Notes: generated from the sequence alone by a model not told the origin. 64,000 nucleotides of DNA from a virus (IMGVR_UViG_3300010401_000032:26145-90144), one strand, 5' to 3'; positions 2,859-29,836 are shown, numbered from the stretch's first letter. Translations and numbers: made by a program.

Positions 2859-3476
2859 ATGGAAGCCCATTGGAAAGAACTACTCGCCATCCTGAATTAT
2901 CAGGATGGCGAATCTATTTTAGACGTTGGTGGGGCCATGGATCCCGTACCTATAGCAGACCAAGTGATTGATATCATGAATCTTAATAGGGGTGGGAAAG
3001 CCTATACGCTTCTAGATTTATGCTGTGACGAATTTCCATTCGACGATAAATCGTTTGACATCTGTATTTGTTCTCAAACGCTAGAAGATCTTGCCTCACC
3101 ACGATTAGCCCTGAGAGAGATGGCTAGAGTTTGTAAACGCGGAATAATTGAAGTACCGCATCGTGGTCCAGAATCAATTAAAAACACATATTCTTTACAT
3201 GGCAAAAAACCAGATTGGGCTATGGATGAAACGTGGTGTTTCGGAACAGAACATCATAAGTGGCTAATTGAAGTCATAGACAATAAATTAATATTTACAG
3301 TAAAAAACTACTTACATCTAATGTACAACCCAATTCCACAATGGAAAGGACCCGGAGGAATTCGTTTTGTATGGTACGACACAATTCCGCATAATGTTAT
3401 GTATGACATCCATCCAGAATCTATGTTTGCGAACTATCAAGATTTTCGGGAACGCTCACGGTGCTACTGGGAATGA
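2859..3476 (+). CDS. class I SAM-dependent methyltransferase
   Basis: Motif I ILDVGGA; motif FDICICSQTLEDL; 4 nt after rsr in the same frame. Confidence 0.55.
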   Translation: MEAHWKELLAILNYQDGESILDVGGAMDPVPIADQVIDIMNLNRGGKAYTLLDLCCDEFPFDDKSFDICICSQTLEDLASPRLALREMARVCKRGIIEVPHRGPESIKNTYSLHGKKPDWAMDETWCFGTEHHKWLIEVIDNKLIFTVKNYLHLMYNPIPQWKGPGGIRFVWYDTIPHNVMYDIHPESMFANYQDFRERSRCYWE

Positions 3477-8748: not shown

Positions 8749-9926
8749 TTATTCAAGAACTTCACGATAGCCCCTATCGTGGAGTATTCCATGAGGTTGG
8801 CGTCGGTATGGAAGTCACGGCTTCTCTATTACGTGTTCCGGGAGCTTCGAAAACAGTTATCGGAGCACATTGTGACTACGCTGGACTTCATAAGCCCAAA
8901 GATATTAGGGCGGTATCATTAGATTACGCCCGAAGGCTCGCATATGAGTGCTTAGAAGCAGCTACGCTAACATTAAAGGATAGCGAGCCCTCGGATCAAG
9001 TATTCGGTATGGCAGTTACGGCAGTAGATTATCCTGATCGTACGTCGCACGCCTGGATTTATATTTCTCGCCTGGGAAAAGATACTAGATACGATCAAGA
9101 CGCTTATATGCACATCAATTTTCTGCCTAATTGCTTCGATCGTGAGCAATTAGGCAGAGAGCTTGCAAATCAAGCACTAAAGTTTCTACATAATGTTCTT
9201 TTAAGAAAAATACCTTGGAGCAAATTCTGTCGTGAGTTCAATGTAACGTGTGGTCCAGGAATTACAGGTATGCTTTATGCAGACGTTATCTATGCTCCTG
9301 GCATAAGCGATATCGAAAGATTATTTACATTAACAGATAATGCTTCACTAGTATTCCACCAAGGAAAATTTCATCGCGTTGTAGATTATCTACGTAAATA
9401 TCATCGAATCTATGGCGGTTCATTTGATCCGCCGCACGACGATCATATGAAGGCCGGCAAAGATTCACTATTCCTGCTTTCAACGAACCACTGTTATAAG
9501 GGTGGCCTTTCTATGGAAGATATCTATCATAGAATGCGAATGCTGGATATTTTTGGCGTTCCCGTCCTTATTATGAAGGATCGCCCTATGTTCTGGCAAA
9601 AGCACAAGCTATTGAATGATTTATGGCCCCAGACGTATAAATATATATTAGGATCAGACGCTTGGAATACAATGATTGCGGCTCACCAATATCCGACCGA
9701 AGATTTCATGCGTAATCATTTCCAAGATGCAATCTTTGAGATTATTCTGCGAAAAAACGAAACCATTAGTAGTAATCAAATTAGTAACGGATTAATACTA
9801 AAGGAATCAGAATTAAAAACAGGTTCAATGTCCAGTACTTCTATTCGAGGCGGCAATTACAAAGGATTGGACTCACGAATAGTGAATTACATTAAGACAA
9901 ACAAACTTTACTCAGAAGGTACTTGA
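8745..9926 (+). CDS. NMN adenylyltransferase-domain protein (cytidylyltransferase-like C-terminal half, unknown N-terminal half)
   Basis: GGSFDPPHDDH = nucleotidyltransferase (H/T)xGH motif of NMNAT/NadM; N-terminal ~250 aa unassigned. Confidence 0.55.
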   Translation: MIIQELHDSPYRGVFHEVGVGMEVTASLLRVPGASKTVIGAHCDYAGLHKPKDIRAVSLDYARRLAYECLEAATLTLKDSEPSDQVFGMAVTAVDYPDRTSHAWIYISRLGKDTRYDQDAYMHINFLPNCFDREQLGRELANQALKFLHNVLLRKIPWSKFCREFNVTCGPGITGMLYADVIYAPGISDIERLFTLTDNASLVFHQGKFHRVVDYLRKYHRIYGGSFDPPHDDHMKAGKDSLFLLSTNHCYKGGLSMEDIYHRMRMLDIFGVPVLIMKDRPMFWQKHKLLNDLWPQTYKYILGSDAWNTMIAAHQYPTEDFMRNHFQDAIFEIILRKNETISSNQISNGLILKESELKTGSMSSTSIRGGNYKGLDSRIVNYIKTNKLYSEGT

Positions 9927-18942: not shown

Positions 18943-19019
18943 GCAGCATTCGTCTACGATAGCTAGGATAGGTCCCTTTCAAGGACCGGAAGAGAGGGCG
19001 GCACTCTCATGCTGTACCA
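18943..19019 (+). tRNA. tRNA-Glu(TTC)-like with unusual T-loop GGCGGCA
   Basis: Acceptor GCAGCAT/ATGCTGT. Anticodon stem GGTCC/GGACC, loop CTTTCAA. T-stem GAGAG/CTCTC. Discriminator A, CCA encoded. The ATG at 19009 in the ORF track lies inside this tRNA. Confidence 0.45.
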
Positions 19020-19050
19020 TTTCGTTTTAACCATAGGAGCAACGCGACTA

Positions 19051-19593
19051 ATGAGATTTAAGAAATATGTTTGTACTTCGGACAAGGCCATTAAGGACAA
19101 GTGGAATCCTTGTGGGTGCCTCTACGAATGGCATCCTGGCACCGAATTTGAGGAAGAGGGCTGCGTCCATTGTGGCGTGCCGCACGAAAATACTGTTTGG
19201 TATAATCTTTATCTCATGATGCCGTACTGGCTTCGTCAAAATCACATTCGAAATCTTAGGCGAAGCATAAGACACTTATATCAGCGTCGCACTCGCGGCT
19301 TTGATGATTCCGATCTATGGAATCTTGATTGCACAATTGGTCACTTTGTTGCTCCTAGACTCCGGGCTTTTATTGATCAATATGGCGATAAGGCAGTTCC
19401 CAGTGGATTAGCTGGCGGCTCTCTCGAAGAGAGAAGTCAAGAGTGGATTGCTATCCTTGAGAAAATACATGAGGCGTTCCGCCTCATGAAGGAAGATGAT
19501 TGGGACACAGTAGAAGATTGGGAAAAACAAAAGAGAACAATTGAAGAAGGACTTGAACTTTTTAAGGAATGGCATAGAGCAATTTGGGACTAA
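19051..19593 (+). CDS. hypothetical protein (start moved to Met15 of track ORF to clear tRNA)
   Basis: Track ORF 19009..19593 overlaps tRNA 3' end; internal ATG at 19051. Confidence 0.4.
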   Translation: MRFKKYVCTSDKAIKDKWNPCGCLYEWHPGTEFEEEGCVHCGVPHENTVWYNLYLMMPYWLRQNHIRNLRRSIRHLYQRRTRGFDDSDLWNLDCTIGHFVAPRLRAFIDQYGDKAVPSGLAGGSLEERSQEWIAILEKIHEAFRLMKEDDWDTVEDWEKQKRTIEEGLELFKEWHRAIWD

Positions 19594-19604
19594 CAACAAA
19601 ACAC

Positions 19605-19691
19605 GCCGGTTTGGCTCAGTAGCGACAGCACCGCTTTTGTAAAGCGGCGAGAGAAATCTCCTCGGGGGTGCGAGTCCTCCAATCGGCTCCA
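19605..19691 (+). tRNA. tRNA, anticodon TGT (Thr-like), carrying a type-II-like extra arm with GAAA tetraloop
   Basis: Acceptor GCCGGTT/AATCGGC. D-stem GCT/AGC. Anticodon stem CCGCT/AGCGG, loop TTTGTAA. Variable arm GAGA-GAAA-TCTC. T-arm GGGGG-TGCGAGT-CCTCC. CCA encoded. Confidence 0.5.
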
Positions 19692-19699
19692 ATTCAATT

Positions 19700-20020
19700 A
19701 TGATTGATTTAGTTAAGAACGACGTATACGATTTTATTAAGTATGCAAGAGGCATGCAGCATTGGCATCCAGAACATGCTGAAAAATATAAAACGGCAGA
19801 AATAGAACTTCTGTTCGAAGCACTGGAAGCACAATCCTGTCAAATCAAGCGTGGCGAACTAGAAAGTCGCTTAAAAGAATTGGGCATTTTGGATCGCCAG
19901 GAACGAAAGAAACGTTGGTCCGCATTTTTCAAGAGTAGAATTCAGAACAAAATTGCGGCAGTCATTAAGACTCATCCATTGAAAGCAAAACGCCTAATCG
20001 AAAGACTAAAGAAAATTTAA
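19700..20020 (+). CDS. hypothetical protein
   Basis: 106-aa ORF. Confidence 0.45.
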   Translation: MIDLVKNDVYDFIKYARGMQHWHPEHAEKYKTAEIELLFEALEAQSCQIKRGELESRLKELGILDRQERKKRWSAFFKSRIQNKIAAVIKTHPLKAKRLIERLKKI

Positions 20021-20021
20021 T

Positions 20022-20095
20022 TCTCCCTTGGTGTAATGGTAGCACGTCGAGCTTTGAACTCGAAAATCTACGTCCGATTCGTGGCGGGAGAACCA
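20022..20095 (+). tRNA. tRNA-Gln(TTG)
   Basis: Acceptor TCTCCCT/CGGGAGA (one mismatch). D-stem GTGT/GCAC. Anticodon stem TCGAG/CTCGA, loop CTTTGAA. T-arm CTACG-TCCGATT-CGTGG. CCA encoded. Confidence 0.5.
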
Positions 20096-20100
20096 AACAT

Positions 20101-20190
20101 GGAAGATTGGCAGAGAGGTTTAATGCAGACGGTTGCTAACTGTCCGGGGCTTCAAAACTCCCATAGGTTCAAATCCTATATCTTCCTCCA
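20101..20190 (+). tRNA. tRNA-Ser(GCT), type II
   Basis: Acceptor GGAAGAT/ATCTTCC. D-stem GCA/TGC, 11-nt loop. Anticodon stem GACGG/CTGTC, loop TTGCTAA. 18-nt variable arm. T-arm ATAGG-TTCAAAT-CCTAT. CCA encoded. Confidence 0.7.
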
Positions 20191-20197
20191 AATAAAC

Positions 20198-20285
20198 GGT
20201 AGGCATCCGGCTGGATGAGGAGCTTGTCCTGAAAACAAGTATAGGTTAATAGCCTTTTGGGGTTCGAGTCCCTAGCCTACCGCCA
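20198..20285 (+). tRNA. tRNA-Ser(TGA), type II, with C33 in anticodon loop
   Basis: Acceptor GGTAGGC/GCCTACC. Anticodon stem CTTGT/ACAAG, loop CCTGAAA. Long variable arm. T-arm TGGGG-TTCGAGT-CCCTA. Discriminator G, CCA encoded. Confidence 0.55.
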
Positions 20286-20293
20286 GAATTTAG

Positions 20294-20322
20294 TTGACAA
20301 TGAATGGTGAGTATCGTATAAT
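20294..20322 (+). promoter_or_regulatory. consensus sigma70 promoter TTGACA-17-TATAAT
   Basis: TTGACA 20294-20299, TATAAT 20317-20322; overlaps 5' part of putative tRNA-His. Confidence 0.6.
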
Positions 20323-20385
20323 GGGAGTATGCTGGCTTGTGACGCCATAGGCGAGAGATCGAAACTCTCTATTCACCCCAACACA
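20306..20385 (+). tRNA. tRNA-His(GTG)-like with G-1 and C73
   Basis: G-1 at 20306. Acceptor GTGAGTA/TATTCAC. Anticodon stem TGGC/GCCA, loop TTGTGAC. T-arm GAGAG-ATCGAAA-CTCTC. Discriminator C then CCA. D-arm irregular and overlapped by the promoter -10. Confidence 0.4.
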
Positions 20386-20387
20386 TT

Positions 20388-20636
20388 ATGAAATTAAGAT
20401 TATACCCTATATATTTCTTTGGTTTGTTTCTAGCGTCTGCAACGACCGGGATTATTCTTCATGCCTTTGAATGCAATAGATTTGATCGTGGTATTGCTGC
20501 CCTAATGCTGGTTGGCATGTTAGGCGGCATCCTTGGAGGAGCATACGAAAGCCGCAGGATGACATATTTTAGATCCAAAATGACAGATGAAGAACTTGGG
20601 CCTTACTACGCCGCAAAACGAAAGTATCCAGGATAA
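20388..20636 (+). CDS. small membrane protein
   Basis: 82 aa, two TM-like segments. Confidence 0.4.
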   Translation: MKLRLYPIYFFGLFLASATTGIILHAFECNRFDRGIAALMLVGMLGGILGGAYESRRMTYFRSKMTDEELGPYYAAKRKYPG

Positions 20637-20638
20637 AT

Positions 20639-20712
20639 GCTCGATTGGTCTAATGGCAGCACTCTCGGTTTACATCCGAGCGGCGGGAGTTCGATTCTCT
20701 CATCGAGTACCA
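20639..20712 (+). tRNA. tRNA-Val(TAC)
   Basis: Acceptor GCTCGAT/ATCGAGT. Anticodon stem CTCGG/CCGAG, loop TTTACAT. T-arm GGGAG-TTCGATT-CTCTC. CCA encoded. D-arm irregular. Confidence 0.5.
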
Positions 20713-20719
20713 AAAACAT

Positions 20720-20795
20720 GGGTCCGTCGTTCAACAGACTAGGACTTCTCTCTACGAAAGAGACAATCAGGGTGCGATTCCTTGCGGACCTACCA
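20720..20795 (+). tRNA. tRNA-Arg(ACG)
   Basis: Acceptor GGGTCCG/CGGACCT. Anticodon stem TCTCT/AGAGA, loop CTACGAA. T-arm CAGGG-TGCGATT-CCTTG. CCA encoded. Confidence 0.55.
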
Positions 20796-20821
20796 TGCAT
20801 CTTCGGTGCAGAAAGTGTAAT

Positions 20822-20962
20822 ATGAGTGGAGACAGAAGCGATTGGTTTTGCAGCAAATGTGGAAAATATCAAGACCCACAATATTTAGATTATAATACAG
20901 GCGAGTGTTGGGATTGTCAAGAAAACGATCTTCCGGAATCATCAGATGCAAGTTCTATTTAG
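20822..20962 (+). CDS. small zinc-ribbon protein (46 aa)
   Basis: MSGDRSDWFCSKCGKYQDPQYLDYNTGECWDCQEN..; CxxC-x17-CxxC; overlaps start of next ORF. Confidence 0.3.
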   Translation: MSGDRSDWFCSKCGKYQDPQYLDYNTGECWDCQENDLPESSDASSI

Positions 20963-21731
20963 AACATCGTTTGATTTTGATGATGAATTAGCTATCGCAA
21001 AACAATATTGCGATGTAAAAGAATATCGTAGTCAGTGCGGTAATGATCTCGTAGTTGGTCGTTATTCAGTTTTACCATACTATAGAGAGCTTGAAAAAGA
21101 TCTGGCGTCGCACAACGCCAAACTAATCAATAGTTATGCGGAGCATAGATGGATCGCCAACTTTGATTACTACGAAACTTTGCATCAATATACGTTTCTA
21201 ACCTGGACAGATGATAACTTCTATAAATGTCCTATAAATGGACCGTTCGTAGTTAAAGGACGAACAAACTCTAGAAAGCATCAATGGAAAACTCATATGT
21301 TTGCCAAGGATAAGGAGGCGGCAATAAATATTGCAAATGAGTTAAACAACGATCCGCTATTAGGCGAGCAGGGAATTTTATATCGCGAATATATTCCATT
21401 AGAGGTCTTTGAAGTAGGAGTTAACGATATTCAATTTACGAACGAATGGCGTTTCTTCTTTTTCAAGCAGAACATACTTACTTATGGATATTATTGGTCA
21501 CAAGCGGATAAAGCAGACGAATATAAGATTCCAGAAGGCGGTATAGAGTTTGCACAAACAATAGCCAATGCGATTGGAGATAACGTTCAATTTTTCGTTG
21601 TCGATATTGCTAAGACGCTGGCTGGCGAATGGATTTTAGTAGAACTTAATGACGGTCAAATGTCCGGGCTTGGAATGGCAAGTCCGCATGACCTATATAG
21701 AAATCTTGCAAAAATAAACACTCCAGGGTAG
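20946..21731 (+). CDS. ATP-grasp-fold enzyme (substrate unknown)
   Basis: C-terminal FFVVDIAKTLAGEWILVELNDGQMSGL typical of ATP-grasp Mg/ATP-binding end; YREYIPLE motif. Confidence 0.5.
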   Translation: MQVLFRTSFDFDDELAIAKQYCDVKEYRSQCGNDLVVGRYSVLPYYRELEKDLASHNAKLINSYAEHRWIANFDYYETLHQYTFLTWTDDNFYKCPINGPFVVKGRTNSRKHQWKTHMFAKDKEAAINIANELNNDPLLGEQGILYREYIPLEVFEVGVNDIQFTNEWRFFFFKQNILTYGYYWSQADKADEYKIPEGGIEFAQTIANAIGDNVQFFVVDIAKTLAGEWILVELNDGQMSGLGMASPHDLYRNLAKINTPG

Positions 21732-21810
21732 GCGACGTTGGTAAAGCCATTTGACTGTTAATCAAACGCGAGCAATCGCACCGTGGGTTCAATTCCTACC
21801 CCTGGAGCCA
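21722..21810 (+). tRNA. tRNA, anticodon GTT (Asn-like), with type-II-like extra arm (GCGA-GCAA-TCGC)
   Basis: Acceptor TCCAGGG/CCCTGGA. D-stem GGC/GCC, 12-nt loop. Anticodon stem TTTGA/TCAAA, loop CTGTTAA. Extra arm with GCAA tetraloop. T-arm GTGGG-TTCAATT-CCTAC. CCA encoded. 5' end overlaps stop of upstream ORF. Confidence 0.5.
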
Positions 21811-21819
21811 ATACAAAAA

Positions 21820-21897
21820 CTGAGTGTGGGAAAGCTTGGAGTTTCCGGCTGGCTTGGAACCAGCAGACCGCAGGTTCAAATCCTGCCACTCAGACCA
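21820..21897 (+). tRNA. tRNA-Pro(TGG)
   Basis: Acceptor CTGAGTG/CACTCAG. D-stem GGAA/TTCC. Anticodon stem GCTGG/CCAGC, loop CTTGGAA. T-arm GCAGG-TTCAAAT-CCTGC. CCA encoded. Confidence 0.7.
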
Positions 21898-21898
21898 T

Positions 21899-21990
21899 GC
21901 TTTCGTGTATCGAGTCCGGCCGAAGATACTTCGCTCTTAACGAAATGTGGGCAACCACCATCCCAGGTTCGAATCCTGGCGAAAGCACCA
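21899..21990 (+). tRNA. tRNA, anticodon CTT (Lys-like), with type-II-like extra arm (GTGG-GCAA-CCAC)
   Basis: Acceptor GCTTTCG/CGAAAGC. D-stem TATC/GATA, long D-loop. Anticodon stem (C)TTCG/CGAA(A), loop CTCTTAA. Extra arm with GCAA tetraloop. T-arm CCAGG-TTCGAAT-CCTGG. CCA encoded. Confidence 0.45.
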
Positions 21991-22284: not shown

Positions 22285-22362
22285 TGGCCCTGTAGACCAA
22301 TTGGCAGAGTCAACAGACTTAAAATCTGTCAAGTGTGGGTTCGACTCCCACTAGGGCTACCA
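22285..22362 (+). tRNA. tRNA with Leu anticodon TAA but class I (short variable arm)
   Basis: Acceptor GGCCCTG/TAGGGCT. D-stem GAC/GTC, 11-nt loop. Anticodon stem ACAGA/TCTGT, loop CTTAAAA. Variable CAAGT. T-arm GTGGG-TTCGACT-CCCAC. CCA encoded. Confidence 0.55.
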
Positions 22363-22373
22363 ACATAATACAA

Positions 22374-22451
22374 GTCCGGGTGACGGAATTAGGCATACGT
22401 ATCACGCTTAGAACGTGAGTTTTGTGGGTTCGATTCCCACCTCGGACACCA
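22374..22451 (+). tRNA. tRNA with Leu anticodon TAG but class I (short variable arm)
   Basis: Acceptor GTCCGGG/CTCGGAC. D-stem ACG/CGT, 12-nt loop. Anticodon stem TCACG/CGTGA, loop CTTAGAA. Variable GTTTT. T-arm GTGGG-TTCGATT-CCCAC. CCA encoded. Confidence 0.55.
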
Positions 22452-24182: not shown

Positions 24183-24258
24183 CCGTGGGTAGCTTAATCA
24201 GTGAAGCATCCGTCTGATACGCGGAAGAGTGATGGTGCAAGTCCATCCCCACGGACCA
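24183..24258 (+). tRNA. tRNA-Ile(GAT)
   Basis: Acceptor CCGTGGG/CCCACGG. D-stem GCTT/AAGC. Anticodon stem TCCGT/GCGGA, loop CTGATAC. T-arm GATGG-TGCAAGT-CCATC. CCA encoded. Confidence 0.6.
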
Positions 24259-29752: not shown

Positions 29753-29836
29753 GGCCCCGTGGTGGAATGCAGACACAATAGACTCAAAATCTATCGCCCT
29801 TAAAGCGTGCCGGTGCAAGTCCGGCCGGGGCTACCA
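29753..29836 (+). tRNA. tRNA-Leu(CAA), type II
   Basis: Acceptor GGCCCCG/CGGGGCT. D-stem GTG/CAC. Anticodon stem ATAGA/TCTAT, loop CTCAAAA. 14-nt variable arm. T-arm GCCGG-TGCAAGT-CCGGC. CCA encoded. Confidence 0.65.

Follow-up and report, generated by a model that had tools for sequence, protein, structure and literature searches.

Long variable arms in transfer RNAs (tRNAs) are normally restricted to the isotypes Leu, Ser, bacterial Tyr and Sec, the members of class II. Nematode nev-tRNAs and bacterial allo-tRNAs combine a long variable arm with anticodons outside Leu, Ser and Tyr. The allo-tRNAs are named in PMC7590224. Here we describe three tRNAs, for Thr, Asn and Lys, that carry such an arm and are encoded in a stretch of viral DNA of 64,000 nucleotides (nt) (IMGVR_UViG_3300010401_000032:26145-90144; the window, meaning the whole stretch that was analysed). 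Judged by their sequences and those of their relatives, they are very probably genuine, functional cognate tRNAs with a conserved class-II-type arm; that this change of shape blocks the tRNA-cutting nucleases of host defence systems is a possibility to which we give slightly less than an even chance.

Other phage tRNAs are known to withstand such nucleases. AriB, the Toprim nuclease of the PARIS system, has as its main targets the tRNAs Lys(UUU), Thr(UGU) and Asn(GUU), which it cuts in the anticodon stem, between positions 40 and 41 with no requirement for base modifications, and the phage T5 versions of the Lys, Thr and Asn tRNAs neutralise PARIS (PMC12409363, Belukhina et al.). An AlphaFold 3 model places one AriB subunit on C40-A41 and the other on U16-U17 of the D-loop, and the changes U39A or U16C impair cutting (PMC12409363). 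P2-OLD is likewise a Toprim nuclease. It favours tRNA-Thr(UGU), leaves two other Thr isoacceptors intact and cuts a third only mildly; it attacks the anticodon stem, and phage Thr tRNAs escape it through changes in that stem (PMC12445682, Govande et al.). Phage tRNAs have been described to escape through point changes, located in the anticodon stem-loop or in the D-loop, and through a shortened anticodon stem (PMC11464382, PMC12409363, PMC12445682, PMC10264068), with anticodon-loop variants among the resistant tRNAs (PMC10264068); term searches of these four papers returned no mention of the variable region.

An ARAGORN scan of the window called 20 tRNAs, three of which, Thr(tgt), Asn(gtt) and Lys(ctt), are oversized. 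These genes and their extra arms are the following, the scores being those of the Rfam tRNA model.

tRNA-Thr(UGU): 19605-19691, plus strand, 87 nt, called by ARAGORN, 44.1 bits
tRNA-Asn(GUU): 21722-21810, plus strand, 89 nt, called by ARAGORN, 49.0 bits
tRNA-Lys(CUU): 21899-21990, plus strand, 92 nt, called by ARAGORN, 41.6 bits
Extra arm of tRNA-Thr: 19649-19660, plus strand, GAGA-GAAA-TCTC, with 1 unpaired nt on its 5' side and 3 nt on its 3' side
Extra arm of tRNA-Asn: 21768-21779, plus strand, GCGA-GCAA-TCGC
Extra arm of tRNA-Lys: 21947-21958, plus strand, GTGG-GCAA-CCAC, followed by the spacer CAUC

All three genes are matched end to end by the Rfam covariance model for tRNA (RF00005; model positions 1-71), with scores above its gathering score of 29 bits. 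Each has U33 and an anticodon loop of 7 nt, and the model aligns the extra bases as inserted between the anticodon arm and the T arm, in the variable region. Both programs place the anticodons where a preliminary description of this DNA had placed them, and the extra arms of 4 base pairs (bp) capped by GNRA loops that it reported are present in the sequence exactly as given. An intron or another anticodon register was ruled out, the covariance model and ARAGORN concurring and the insert being a 12-nt hairpin in the variable region. With lengths of 16, 16 and 17 nt (Thr, Asn and Lys), the variable regions each form a 4-bp stem with a GNRA tetraloop; all three tRNAs thus have the structural mark of class II, a variable region of at least 10 nt that forms a stem-loop, on anticodons (UGU, GUU and CUU) that lie outside the class II isotypes Leu, Ser, Tyr and Sec.

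Each of the three has a 7-bp acceptor stem, a 5-bp T-stem and an encoded CCA. The tRNA-Thr shows G1-C72, C2-G71, U73 and the T-loop UGCGAGU; the tRNA-Asn shows U1-A72, G73 and an anticodon arm reading U36-A-A-U39-C40-A41; the tRNA-Lys shows A73 and a C-A mismatch at 27:43. The long D-loops noticed earlier were borne out, at 10 nt in Thr, about 11-13 nt in Asn and 13 nt in Lys (GAGTCCGGCCGAA), and amount to a class-II-like enlargement, while the 3-bp D-stem that had been attributed to all three holds for Thr and Asn and has to be corrected to 4 bp for Lys. Single-sequence folding keeps the extra hairpin in every case, and the minimum-free-energy fold of tRNA-Asn is a five-arm cloverleaf. Because the z-scores of these folds are weak (-0.7 to -2.1), as is usual for tRNAs, we relied on covariation.

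For 30 distinct long tRNA-Lys sequences whose variable region measures 17 nt, pairing of the extra helix is 100% and double changes occur in 4 of its 4 pairs, a degree of covariation reached by 0 of 500 shuffles. Its support equals that of the anticodon and T stems, double changes and 91-100% pairing being seen in all three. In sets of 112 long Lys, 102 long Asn and 62 long Thr(UGU) tRNAs, the GNRA loop is enclosed by 3 bp or more in 82-88%, against 8-13% when the 3' flank is shuffled, and each isotype set comprises 33-59 distinct stem sequences. The extra arm is a selected helix, far beyond chance, and its maintenance by compensatory change in homologues is the behaviour of a functional gene.

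The same can be followed in the relatives of the window. Phages related to it through their DNA ligase (59-66% identity) carry tRNA clusters, and one of them, L017, has the Pro-Lys gene order of the window and a 91-nt tRNA-Lys(CUU) with the arm GTGA-GCAA-TCAC; compared with the window arm, the Lys arm of L017 and L630-L634 shows a compensatory change from G-C to A-U. A metagenome scan for this Lys family yielded four further contigs of the L017 lineage, all keeping the Pro-Lys order, and no other lineage. Two relatives, L015 and L016, have an ordinary tRNA-Lys(CUU) of 74-76 nt, so that the long arm has been gained or lost within the group. Homologues of the Thr arm read GAG-GAAA-CTC, GAGA-GTAA-TCTC, GGG-GTAA-CCC and GAC-GAAA-GTC; the Asn arm is identical in L343, and related long Asn arms read GCA-GAAA-TGC, GGA-GAAA-TCC, GTC-GAAA-GAC and GCC-GAAA-GGC. 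In the nearest long Thr and Asn genes elsewhere the helix is kept and the base pairs differ. A search through the ATP-grasp protein adjoining tRNA-Asn gave 14 loci, none with a comparable tRNA cluster, and a search through the open reading frame (ORF) at 19009-19593 found no relatives. As a separate observation, L016 also has an 86-nt 'tRNA-Asn' (9067-9152), whose anticodon arm pairs poorly and which contains an insert-like segment of 23 nt, and a 74-nt tRNA-Tyr (9565-9638) that would be a class-I-like Tyr.

The preliminary description took these tRNAs to be mis-assigned or chimeric, possibly with altered aminoacylation identity. On such an account they would be class II bodies with swapped anticodons, charged by the seryl-, leucyl- or tyrosyl-tRNA synthetase, and the Thr, Asn and Lys codons would be recoded. 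Nematode nev-tRNAs offer a precedent, and the long variable arm, the class-II-like D-loop, the resemblance of the arm geometry to tRNA-Tyr, the A73 and U35 that Lys shares with tRNA-Tyr and the G34-U35 that Asn shares with it are all compatible with the idea. The acceptor and discriminator marks speak otherwise. Long Thr tRNAs have G1-C72 in 62 of 62 and C2-G71 in 61 of 62, long Asn tRNAs G73 in 96 of 102 and U1-A72 in 67 of 102, and long Lys tRNAs A73 in 91 of 112; for each isotype these are the marks of the short forms, and they differ from those of the co-resident Ser (G73, G2-C71) and Leu (A73) tRNAs, Asn and Thr differing also from Tyr (A73). When the anticodon and variable region are removed, the most frequent nearest neighbour is a same-isotype short tRNA, at 32-44% (chance, 4-8%); Ser and Tyr bodies are next in frequency, which reflects the class-II-like D-arm. 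In the window, the Thr and Asn bodies are nearest to their own isotype and the Lys body is ambiguous.

The geometry of the arm adds to this. Long arms consist of 1 unpaired nt, 3-4 bp, the loop and then 3-4 unpaired nt on the 3' side, where a C-A-x-C spacer is conserved whose final C fits a G15-C48 Levitt pair. The Tyr arms found in the same phages are built similarly, whereas their Ser arms have 5-7 bp with 1 nt on the 3' side and their Leu arms have 0 and 1 nt; the arms are therefore too short and differently spaced for a Ser type. The D-loops of long Lys and Thr tRNAs are enlarged on the 3' side and read GG-Y-CGAA, compared with GGTAGAG in the short forms. Of the Leu/Ser-type body proposed earlier, the type-II-like arm and the class-II-like D-loop thus stand, and the arm geometry, which is Tyr-like and unlike that of Ser or Leu, does not. 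Descent from tRNA-Tyr by anticodon change, which the geometry and D-loop would allow, was also rejected, the acceptor marks and nearest neighbours favouring the cognate isotype. Substitution of Lys, Asn and Thr throughout the proteome would moreover be highly deleterious, yet the trait is common. We conclude from these marks that the Thr, Asn and Lys tRNAs are in all likelihood cognate and not chimeric, and we regard mis-acylation as very improbable.

How common the trait is was estimated in IMG/VR with a pattern made up of the isotype's anticodon loop, a GNRA loop at arm distance and a T-loop, and the resulting counts are lower bounds. The scan for Lys gave at least 117 long tRNA-Lys genes (119 stretches), and the same design gave at least 111 long Asn and at least 72 long Thr(UGU) genes, so that the textbook restriction of the arm is broken on three class I isotypes. 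A Phe control of the same design, which is dominated by tRNA-Ser(UGA) read in a shifted register and was used after classification, contained among the matches listed 3-4 long Phe tRNAs, 38 chance matches and 77 of these shifted tRNA-Ser(UGA). Cultured phages have the arm as well: phiKZ (L629, NC_004629.1) encodes an 89-nt tRNA-Asn at 14558-14646 with the arm GGC-GAAA-GCC, together with a normal 78-nt tRNA-Asn at 16741-16818 and a tRNA-Thr of normal length; the tRNA-Lys(CUU) of phiCbK has 84 nt and the arm AGC-GAAA-GCT; and close matches occur in RcXuper, XacN1, Cp1R7A-A1, vB_RpoS-V10, X1 and DSS3P8. These tRNAs are annotated plainly, with no comment on the arm. Searches of the open-access full-text literature turned up no account of long arms on phage tRNAs of class I isotypes, an earlier mention elsewhere being possible, and the arm on class I isotypes is a widespread and apparently undescribed phage trait.

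In bacterial genomes the same long-arm tRNA-Lys was found in dense tRNA arrays; complete genomes of E. coli yielded no long-arm tRNA-Lys. Many of the 120 matches of this genome scan were set aside as archaeal and read as intron-bearing tRNA-Lys, which ARAGORN missed or misread as tRNAs with long arms or stop anticodons.

Which tRNAs carry the arm was assessed in an unselected sample, in which tRNAs that merely neighbour the scanned genes were pooled and not chosen by length. The long forms were distributed as follows.

Ile(UAU): 17 of 42 long, 40%
Thr(UGU): 16 of 63 long, 25%
Asn(GUU): 14 of 68 long, 21%
Cys: 11 of 57 long, 19%
Met: 18 of 152 long, 12%
Trp: 9 of 79 long, 11%
Lys: 10 of 128 long, 8%
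Ile(GAU): 5 of 113 long, 4%
Asp: 4 of 115 long, 3%
Thr(CGU): 1 of 34 long, 3%
Ala(UGC): 1 of 92 long, 1%
Val: 1 of 91 long, 1%
Phe: 0 of 92 long, 0%
Thr(GGU): 0 of 33 long, 0%

The trait is concentrated on Lys UUU/CUU, Asn GUU, Thr UGU and Ile UAU, and less so on Cys, Met and Trp. Within Thr, 16 of 63 UGU tRNAs are long against 1 of 67 (1.5%) with GGU or CGU (p=3.6e-5); within Ile, the UAU form exceeds GAU (p=1.3e-7); and Asn exceeds Asp (p=4e-4), although both are substrates of homologous enzymes, the asparaginyl- and aspartyl-tRNA synthetases. Since a bias between isoacceptors arises among the substrates of one synthetase, tolerance by the synthetase cannot alone explain the distribution. 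The selecting agent, whatever it is, reads the anticodon arm. Of the isoacceptors sampled, Ile(UAU) is the one in which long arms are most frequent. Its extra arms are longer, with a conserved CAGAUUA or CAGAUCA loop that is not a GNRA loop; examples are found in L065 (6073-6165), L066 (10774-10865), L067 (903-993) and L141 (7744-7835).

These figures bear directly on the simplest explanation, that the arm is a stabilising or near-neutral insertion which persists wherever the cognate synthetase tolerates it. The variable region faces the solvent; a GNRA hairpin and a larger D-loop may aid folding, perhaps when the tRNA is under-modified; and GNRA loops are generic stabilisers, common on the Ser and Leu arms of the same phages. 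Engineered tRNAs with aptamer hairpins are reported to remain active in translation (PMC5397188, PMC7590224). The patchiness described above, with short tRNA-Lys(CUU) in L015 and L016 and long in L017 and the window, would also be expected of such an insertion, as would the finding that long Lys and long Asn tRNAs occur mostly in different phages. It would not by itself produce the strong bias between isoacceptors of one enzyme, the bias of Asn over Asp, or the virtual absence of the arm from Phe and Val, whose anticodons Phe(GAA) and Val(UAC) are also A/U-rich, and the arm geometry, the C-A-x-C spacer and the co-varying D-loop are all conserved. We consider this explanation unlikely.

Of the readings considered, the most likely is the one in which the arm protects against defence nucleases. 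A helix of 3-4 bp with a GNRA cap, inserted in the variable region and accompanied by a class-II-style enlargement of the D-loop, would give a five-arm tRNA that still decodes and still accepts Thr, Asn or Lys, and its altered shape would keep host tRNA-cutting nucleases off the phage's own tRNA copies. Candidate nucleases are the Toprim enzymes AriB of PARIS and P2-OLD and similar anticodon-arm nucleases. The arm leaves the core at 44-45, 3-4 nt downstream of the AriB cut (40|41) on the same strand, and adjoins the D-arm, which the second subunit contacts in the AriB model, the D-loop being remodelled too. Since these synthetases recognise the anticodon and the acceptor end, they should still work, as should the ribosome, which already accepts class II tRNAs; EF-Tu is presumed to work as well. 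A broader proposal, which we find somewhat doubtful, is that phages systematically convert certain tRNAs from one structural class to the other, a counter-defence that works through shape and leaves the amino acid carried unchanged: a Tyr-type arm and larger D-loop would be added to Lys, Asn, Thr(UGU), Ile(UAU) and others, and the arm removed from Leu. The arm would then be a portable module hiding a host-like, nuclease-sensitive anticodon arm from Toprim nucleases (AriB, OLD) and other tRNases.

Several observations are in keeping with protection. The three window tRNAs are the AriB target trio, exactly for Thr(UGU) and Asn(GUU) and with CUU instead of UUU for Lys. The restriction of the arm to UGU within Thr mirrors the preference of P2-OLD, whose spared Thr isoacceptors are presumably GGU and CGU. 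Long Lys tRNAs keep the canonical U39-C40 in 82 of 112 cases (73%), compared with 29 of 85 (34%) short ones (p=5.5e-8), and a paired CNG stem motif in 105 of 122 (86%) compared with 100 of 201 (50%; p=1e-11), with equal stem GC. This retention fits the arm as an alternative to the anticodon-stem mutations of short phage tRNAs. The presence in the window of an RNA ligase and of Ro60 with a Y-RNA-like element is likewise in line with a link to defence.

The link to defence nevertheless rests on correlation and inference, and a number of points weigh against it. Steric exclusion is deduced from the position of the arm alone. The tRNAs Ile(UAU), Cys, Met and Trp also carry arms often, although the AriB and OLD papers do not name them as prime targets, and the fraction of long Lys tRNAs in the unselected sample is low. 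Long and short forms of Thr and Asn show no difference in U39-C40; for CNG, Thr shows none and Asn differs in this motif only. In the window itself, the Lys anticodon is not the UUU targeted by AriB, and the Thr and Lys tRNAs are non-canonical at 39-41, so that there the arm does not stand in place of stem changes. In these phages GNRA loops also cap 11-39% of the extra arms of Ser, Leu and Tyr tRNAs, and the tetraloop itself may only stabilise a short stem. Finally, long-arm tRNA-Lys(UUU) genes also stand alone among housekeeping genes in Frankiales-type genomes: L175, L167, L176, L191, L193 and L235 each have a single tRNA-Lys(UUU) with the arm CGCG-GAAA-CGCC, alone within 8 kb, and in L175, a Frankiales metagenome-assembled genome, the gene (2977-3061) lies between a thiolase and an alcohol dehydrogenase, no integrase being found. 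These solitary copies look cellular rather than phage-borne, and the architecture is accordingly not solely a counter-measure of phages.

The window comes from a large, novel phage. The region had no megablast match among 50,697 cultured-phage records, and a distant search with the Asn-Pro-Lys region gave weak, partial tRNA matches only; the phage is without a close cultured relative. Besides at least 21 tRNA genes, the window encodes NAMPT, a DNA ligase, an RNA ligase, a methyltransferase and a Ro60/TROVE protein that follows a YrlA-like RNA; Pfam searches on 20 neighbouring ORFs found nothing specific to tRNA besides the RNA ligase and the DNA ligase. The YrlA-like RNA (1191-1305; 29.8 bits, under the gathering score of 69, E=1.6e-4) lies directly upstream of the Ro60/TROVE ORF (1326-2855). 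Within the region 960-1305 there are further tRNA-like modules upstream of it; in one of them a GAGGC-GAAA-GCTTC hairpin lies immediately 5' of a T-arm-like element. A GTGGG-GCAA-CCCAC hairpin near the Ro60 gene (1017-1030) has one pair more than the Lys arm. This last hairpin had been proposed to form, with the Lys arm, a shared recognition element. Its existence is confirmed, but by simple arithmetic about 40 hairpins of the form NNNN-GNRA-N'N'N'N' are expected per strand in 64 kb, and the resemblance is therefore not beyond chance; a shared element is not established.

These genes raise the question of whether the arm could be a positive handle, a GNRA-capped structure by which a phage or host factor marks tRNAs as 'phage'. 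The factor could be an enzyme of modification, one of processing or repair (the RNA ligase, for instance), or the Ro60/Y-RNA quality-control system. The presence of Ro60 with its YrlA-like RNA, of the RNA ligase and of the methyltransferase in the window would suit such a factor, as would the GNRA-capped hairpins of the Y-RNA-like region, including the one beside the T-arm-like element, and the conserved CAGAUUA loop of the Ile(UAU) arms resembles a sequence-specific site. Against this, the stems vary freely, the loops may be GAAA, GCAA, GUAA or of a non-GNRA type, the arm is found across highly diverse phages and also in cells, no shared neighbouring gene having been identified, and the Y-RNA hairpin resembles the Lys arm no more than chance allows. 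A handle of this kind, with any of these partners, seems to us quite unlikely.

Some further tRNA features of the window deserve mention. The tRNA-Leu(UAA) at 22286-22362 and tRNA-Leu(UAG) at 22374-22451 have class-I-like variable loops of 5 nt and A73; short variable loops occur in 43 of 99 Leu tRNAs from the Lys-scan loci (taken with the ligase and ATP-grasp relatives and the window). A CUA-anticodon tRNA at 16141-16217, labelled 'Pyl' by ARAGORN, is a potential amber suppressor; a GUG-anticodon tRNA at 20307-20377 (His by its anticodon; Rfam, 49.7 bits) was missed by ARAGORN; and a borderline tRNA-like Rfam match of 29.7 bits lies at 17064-17132. The T-loops of the tRNAs at 19605-19691, 20720-20795, 24183-24258 and 29753-29836 have U54-G55-C56 and not U-U-C, with 'AG' replacing G18-G19. 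Over all loci, tgc T-loops go with AG in 41 of 48 tRNAs and ttc T-loops with GG in 2689 of 2715, an apparent co-variation of the tertiary 18:55 pair.

If the arm does block tRNA-cutting immunity, it would be a new and easily transferable escape beside the point mutations known from PARIS and P2-OLD; it would account in part for the tRNA genes that phages carry and would offer a design rule for nuclease-proof tRNAs in phage therapy and orthogonal translation. Compared with known systems, the three tRNAs share the variable stem-loop and enlarged D-loop of the bacterial class II tRNAs (Leu, Ser, Tyr and Sec), and with the class II tRNA-Tyr of the same phages also the spacing of 1 nt, 3-4 bp and 3-4 nt; they differ in having Thr, Asn and Lys anticodons and marks, and an arm shorter than that of Ser. 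Nev-tRNAs, which have a Leu/Ser body and identity elements under a foreign anticodon, and allo-tRNAs, with their 8/4 or 9/3 acceptor/T-stem architecture, either keep Leu/Ser identity and mis-assign codons or depart from the standard architecture; the three window tRNAs have cognate identity marks, a 7-bp acceptor stem and a 5-bp T-stem. The type I short-loop tRNA-Leu of Streptomyces coelicolor (PMC6614811), which the short-looped Leu tRNAs of the window resemble, represents the converse class switch, in a different isotype and with the arm lost, not gained. As to the nuclease-resistant phage tRNAs (PMC11464382, PMC12409363, PMC12445682), the three resemble them in being phage copies of the destroyed isoacceptors, Thr(UGU), Asn(GUU) and Lys; their own resistance is a prediction only, and the change that would confer it, unlike those described so far, is a whole added helix.

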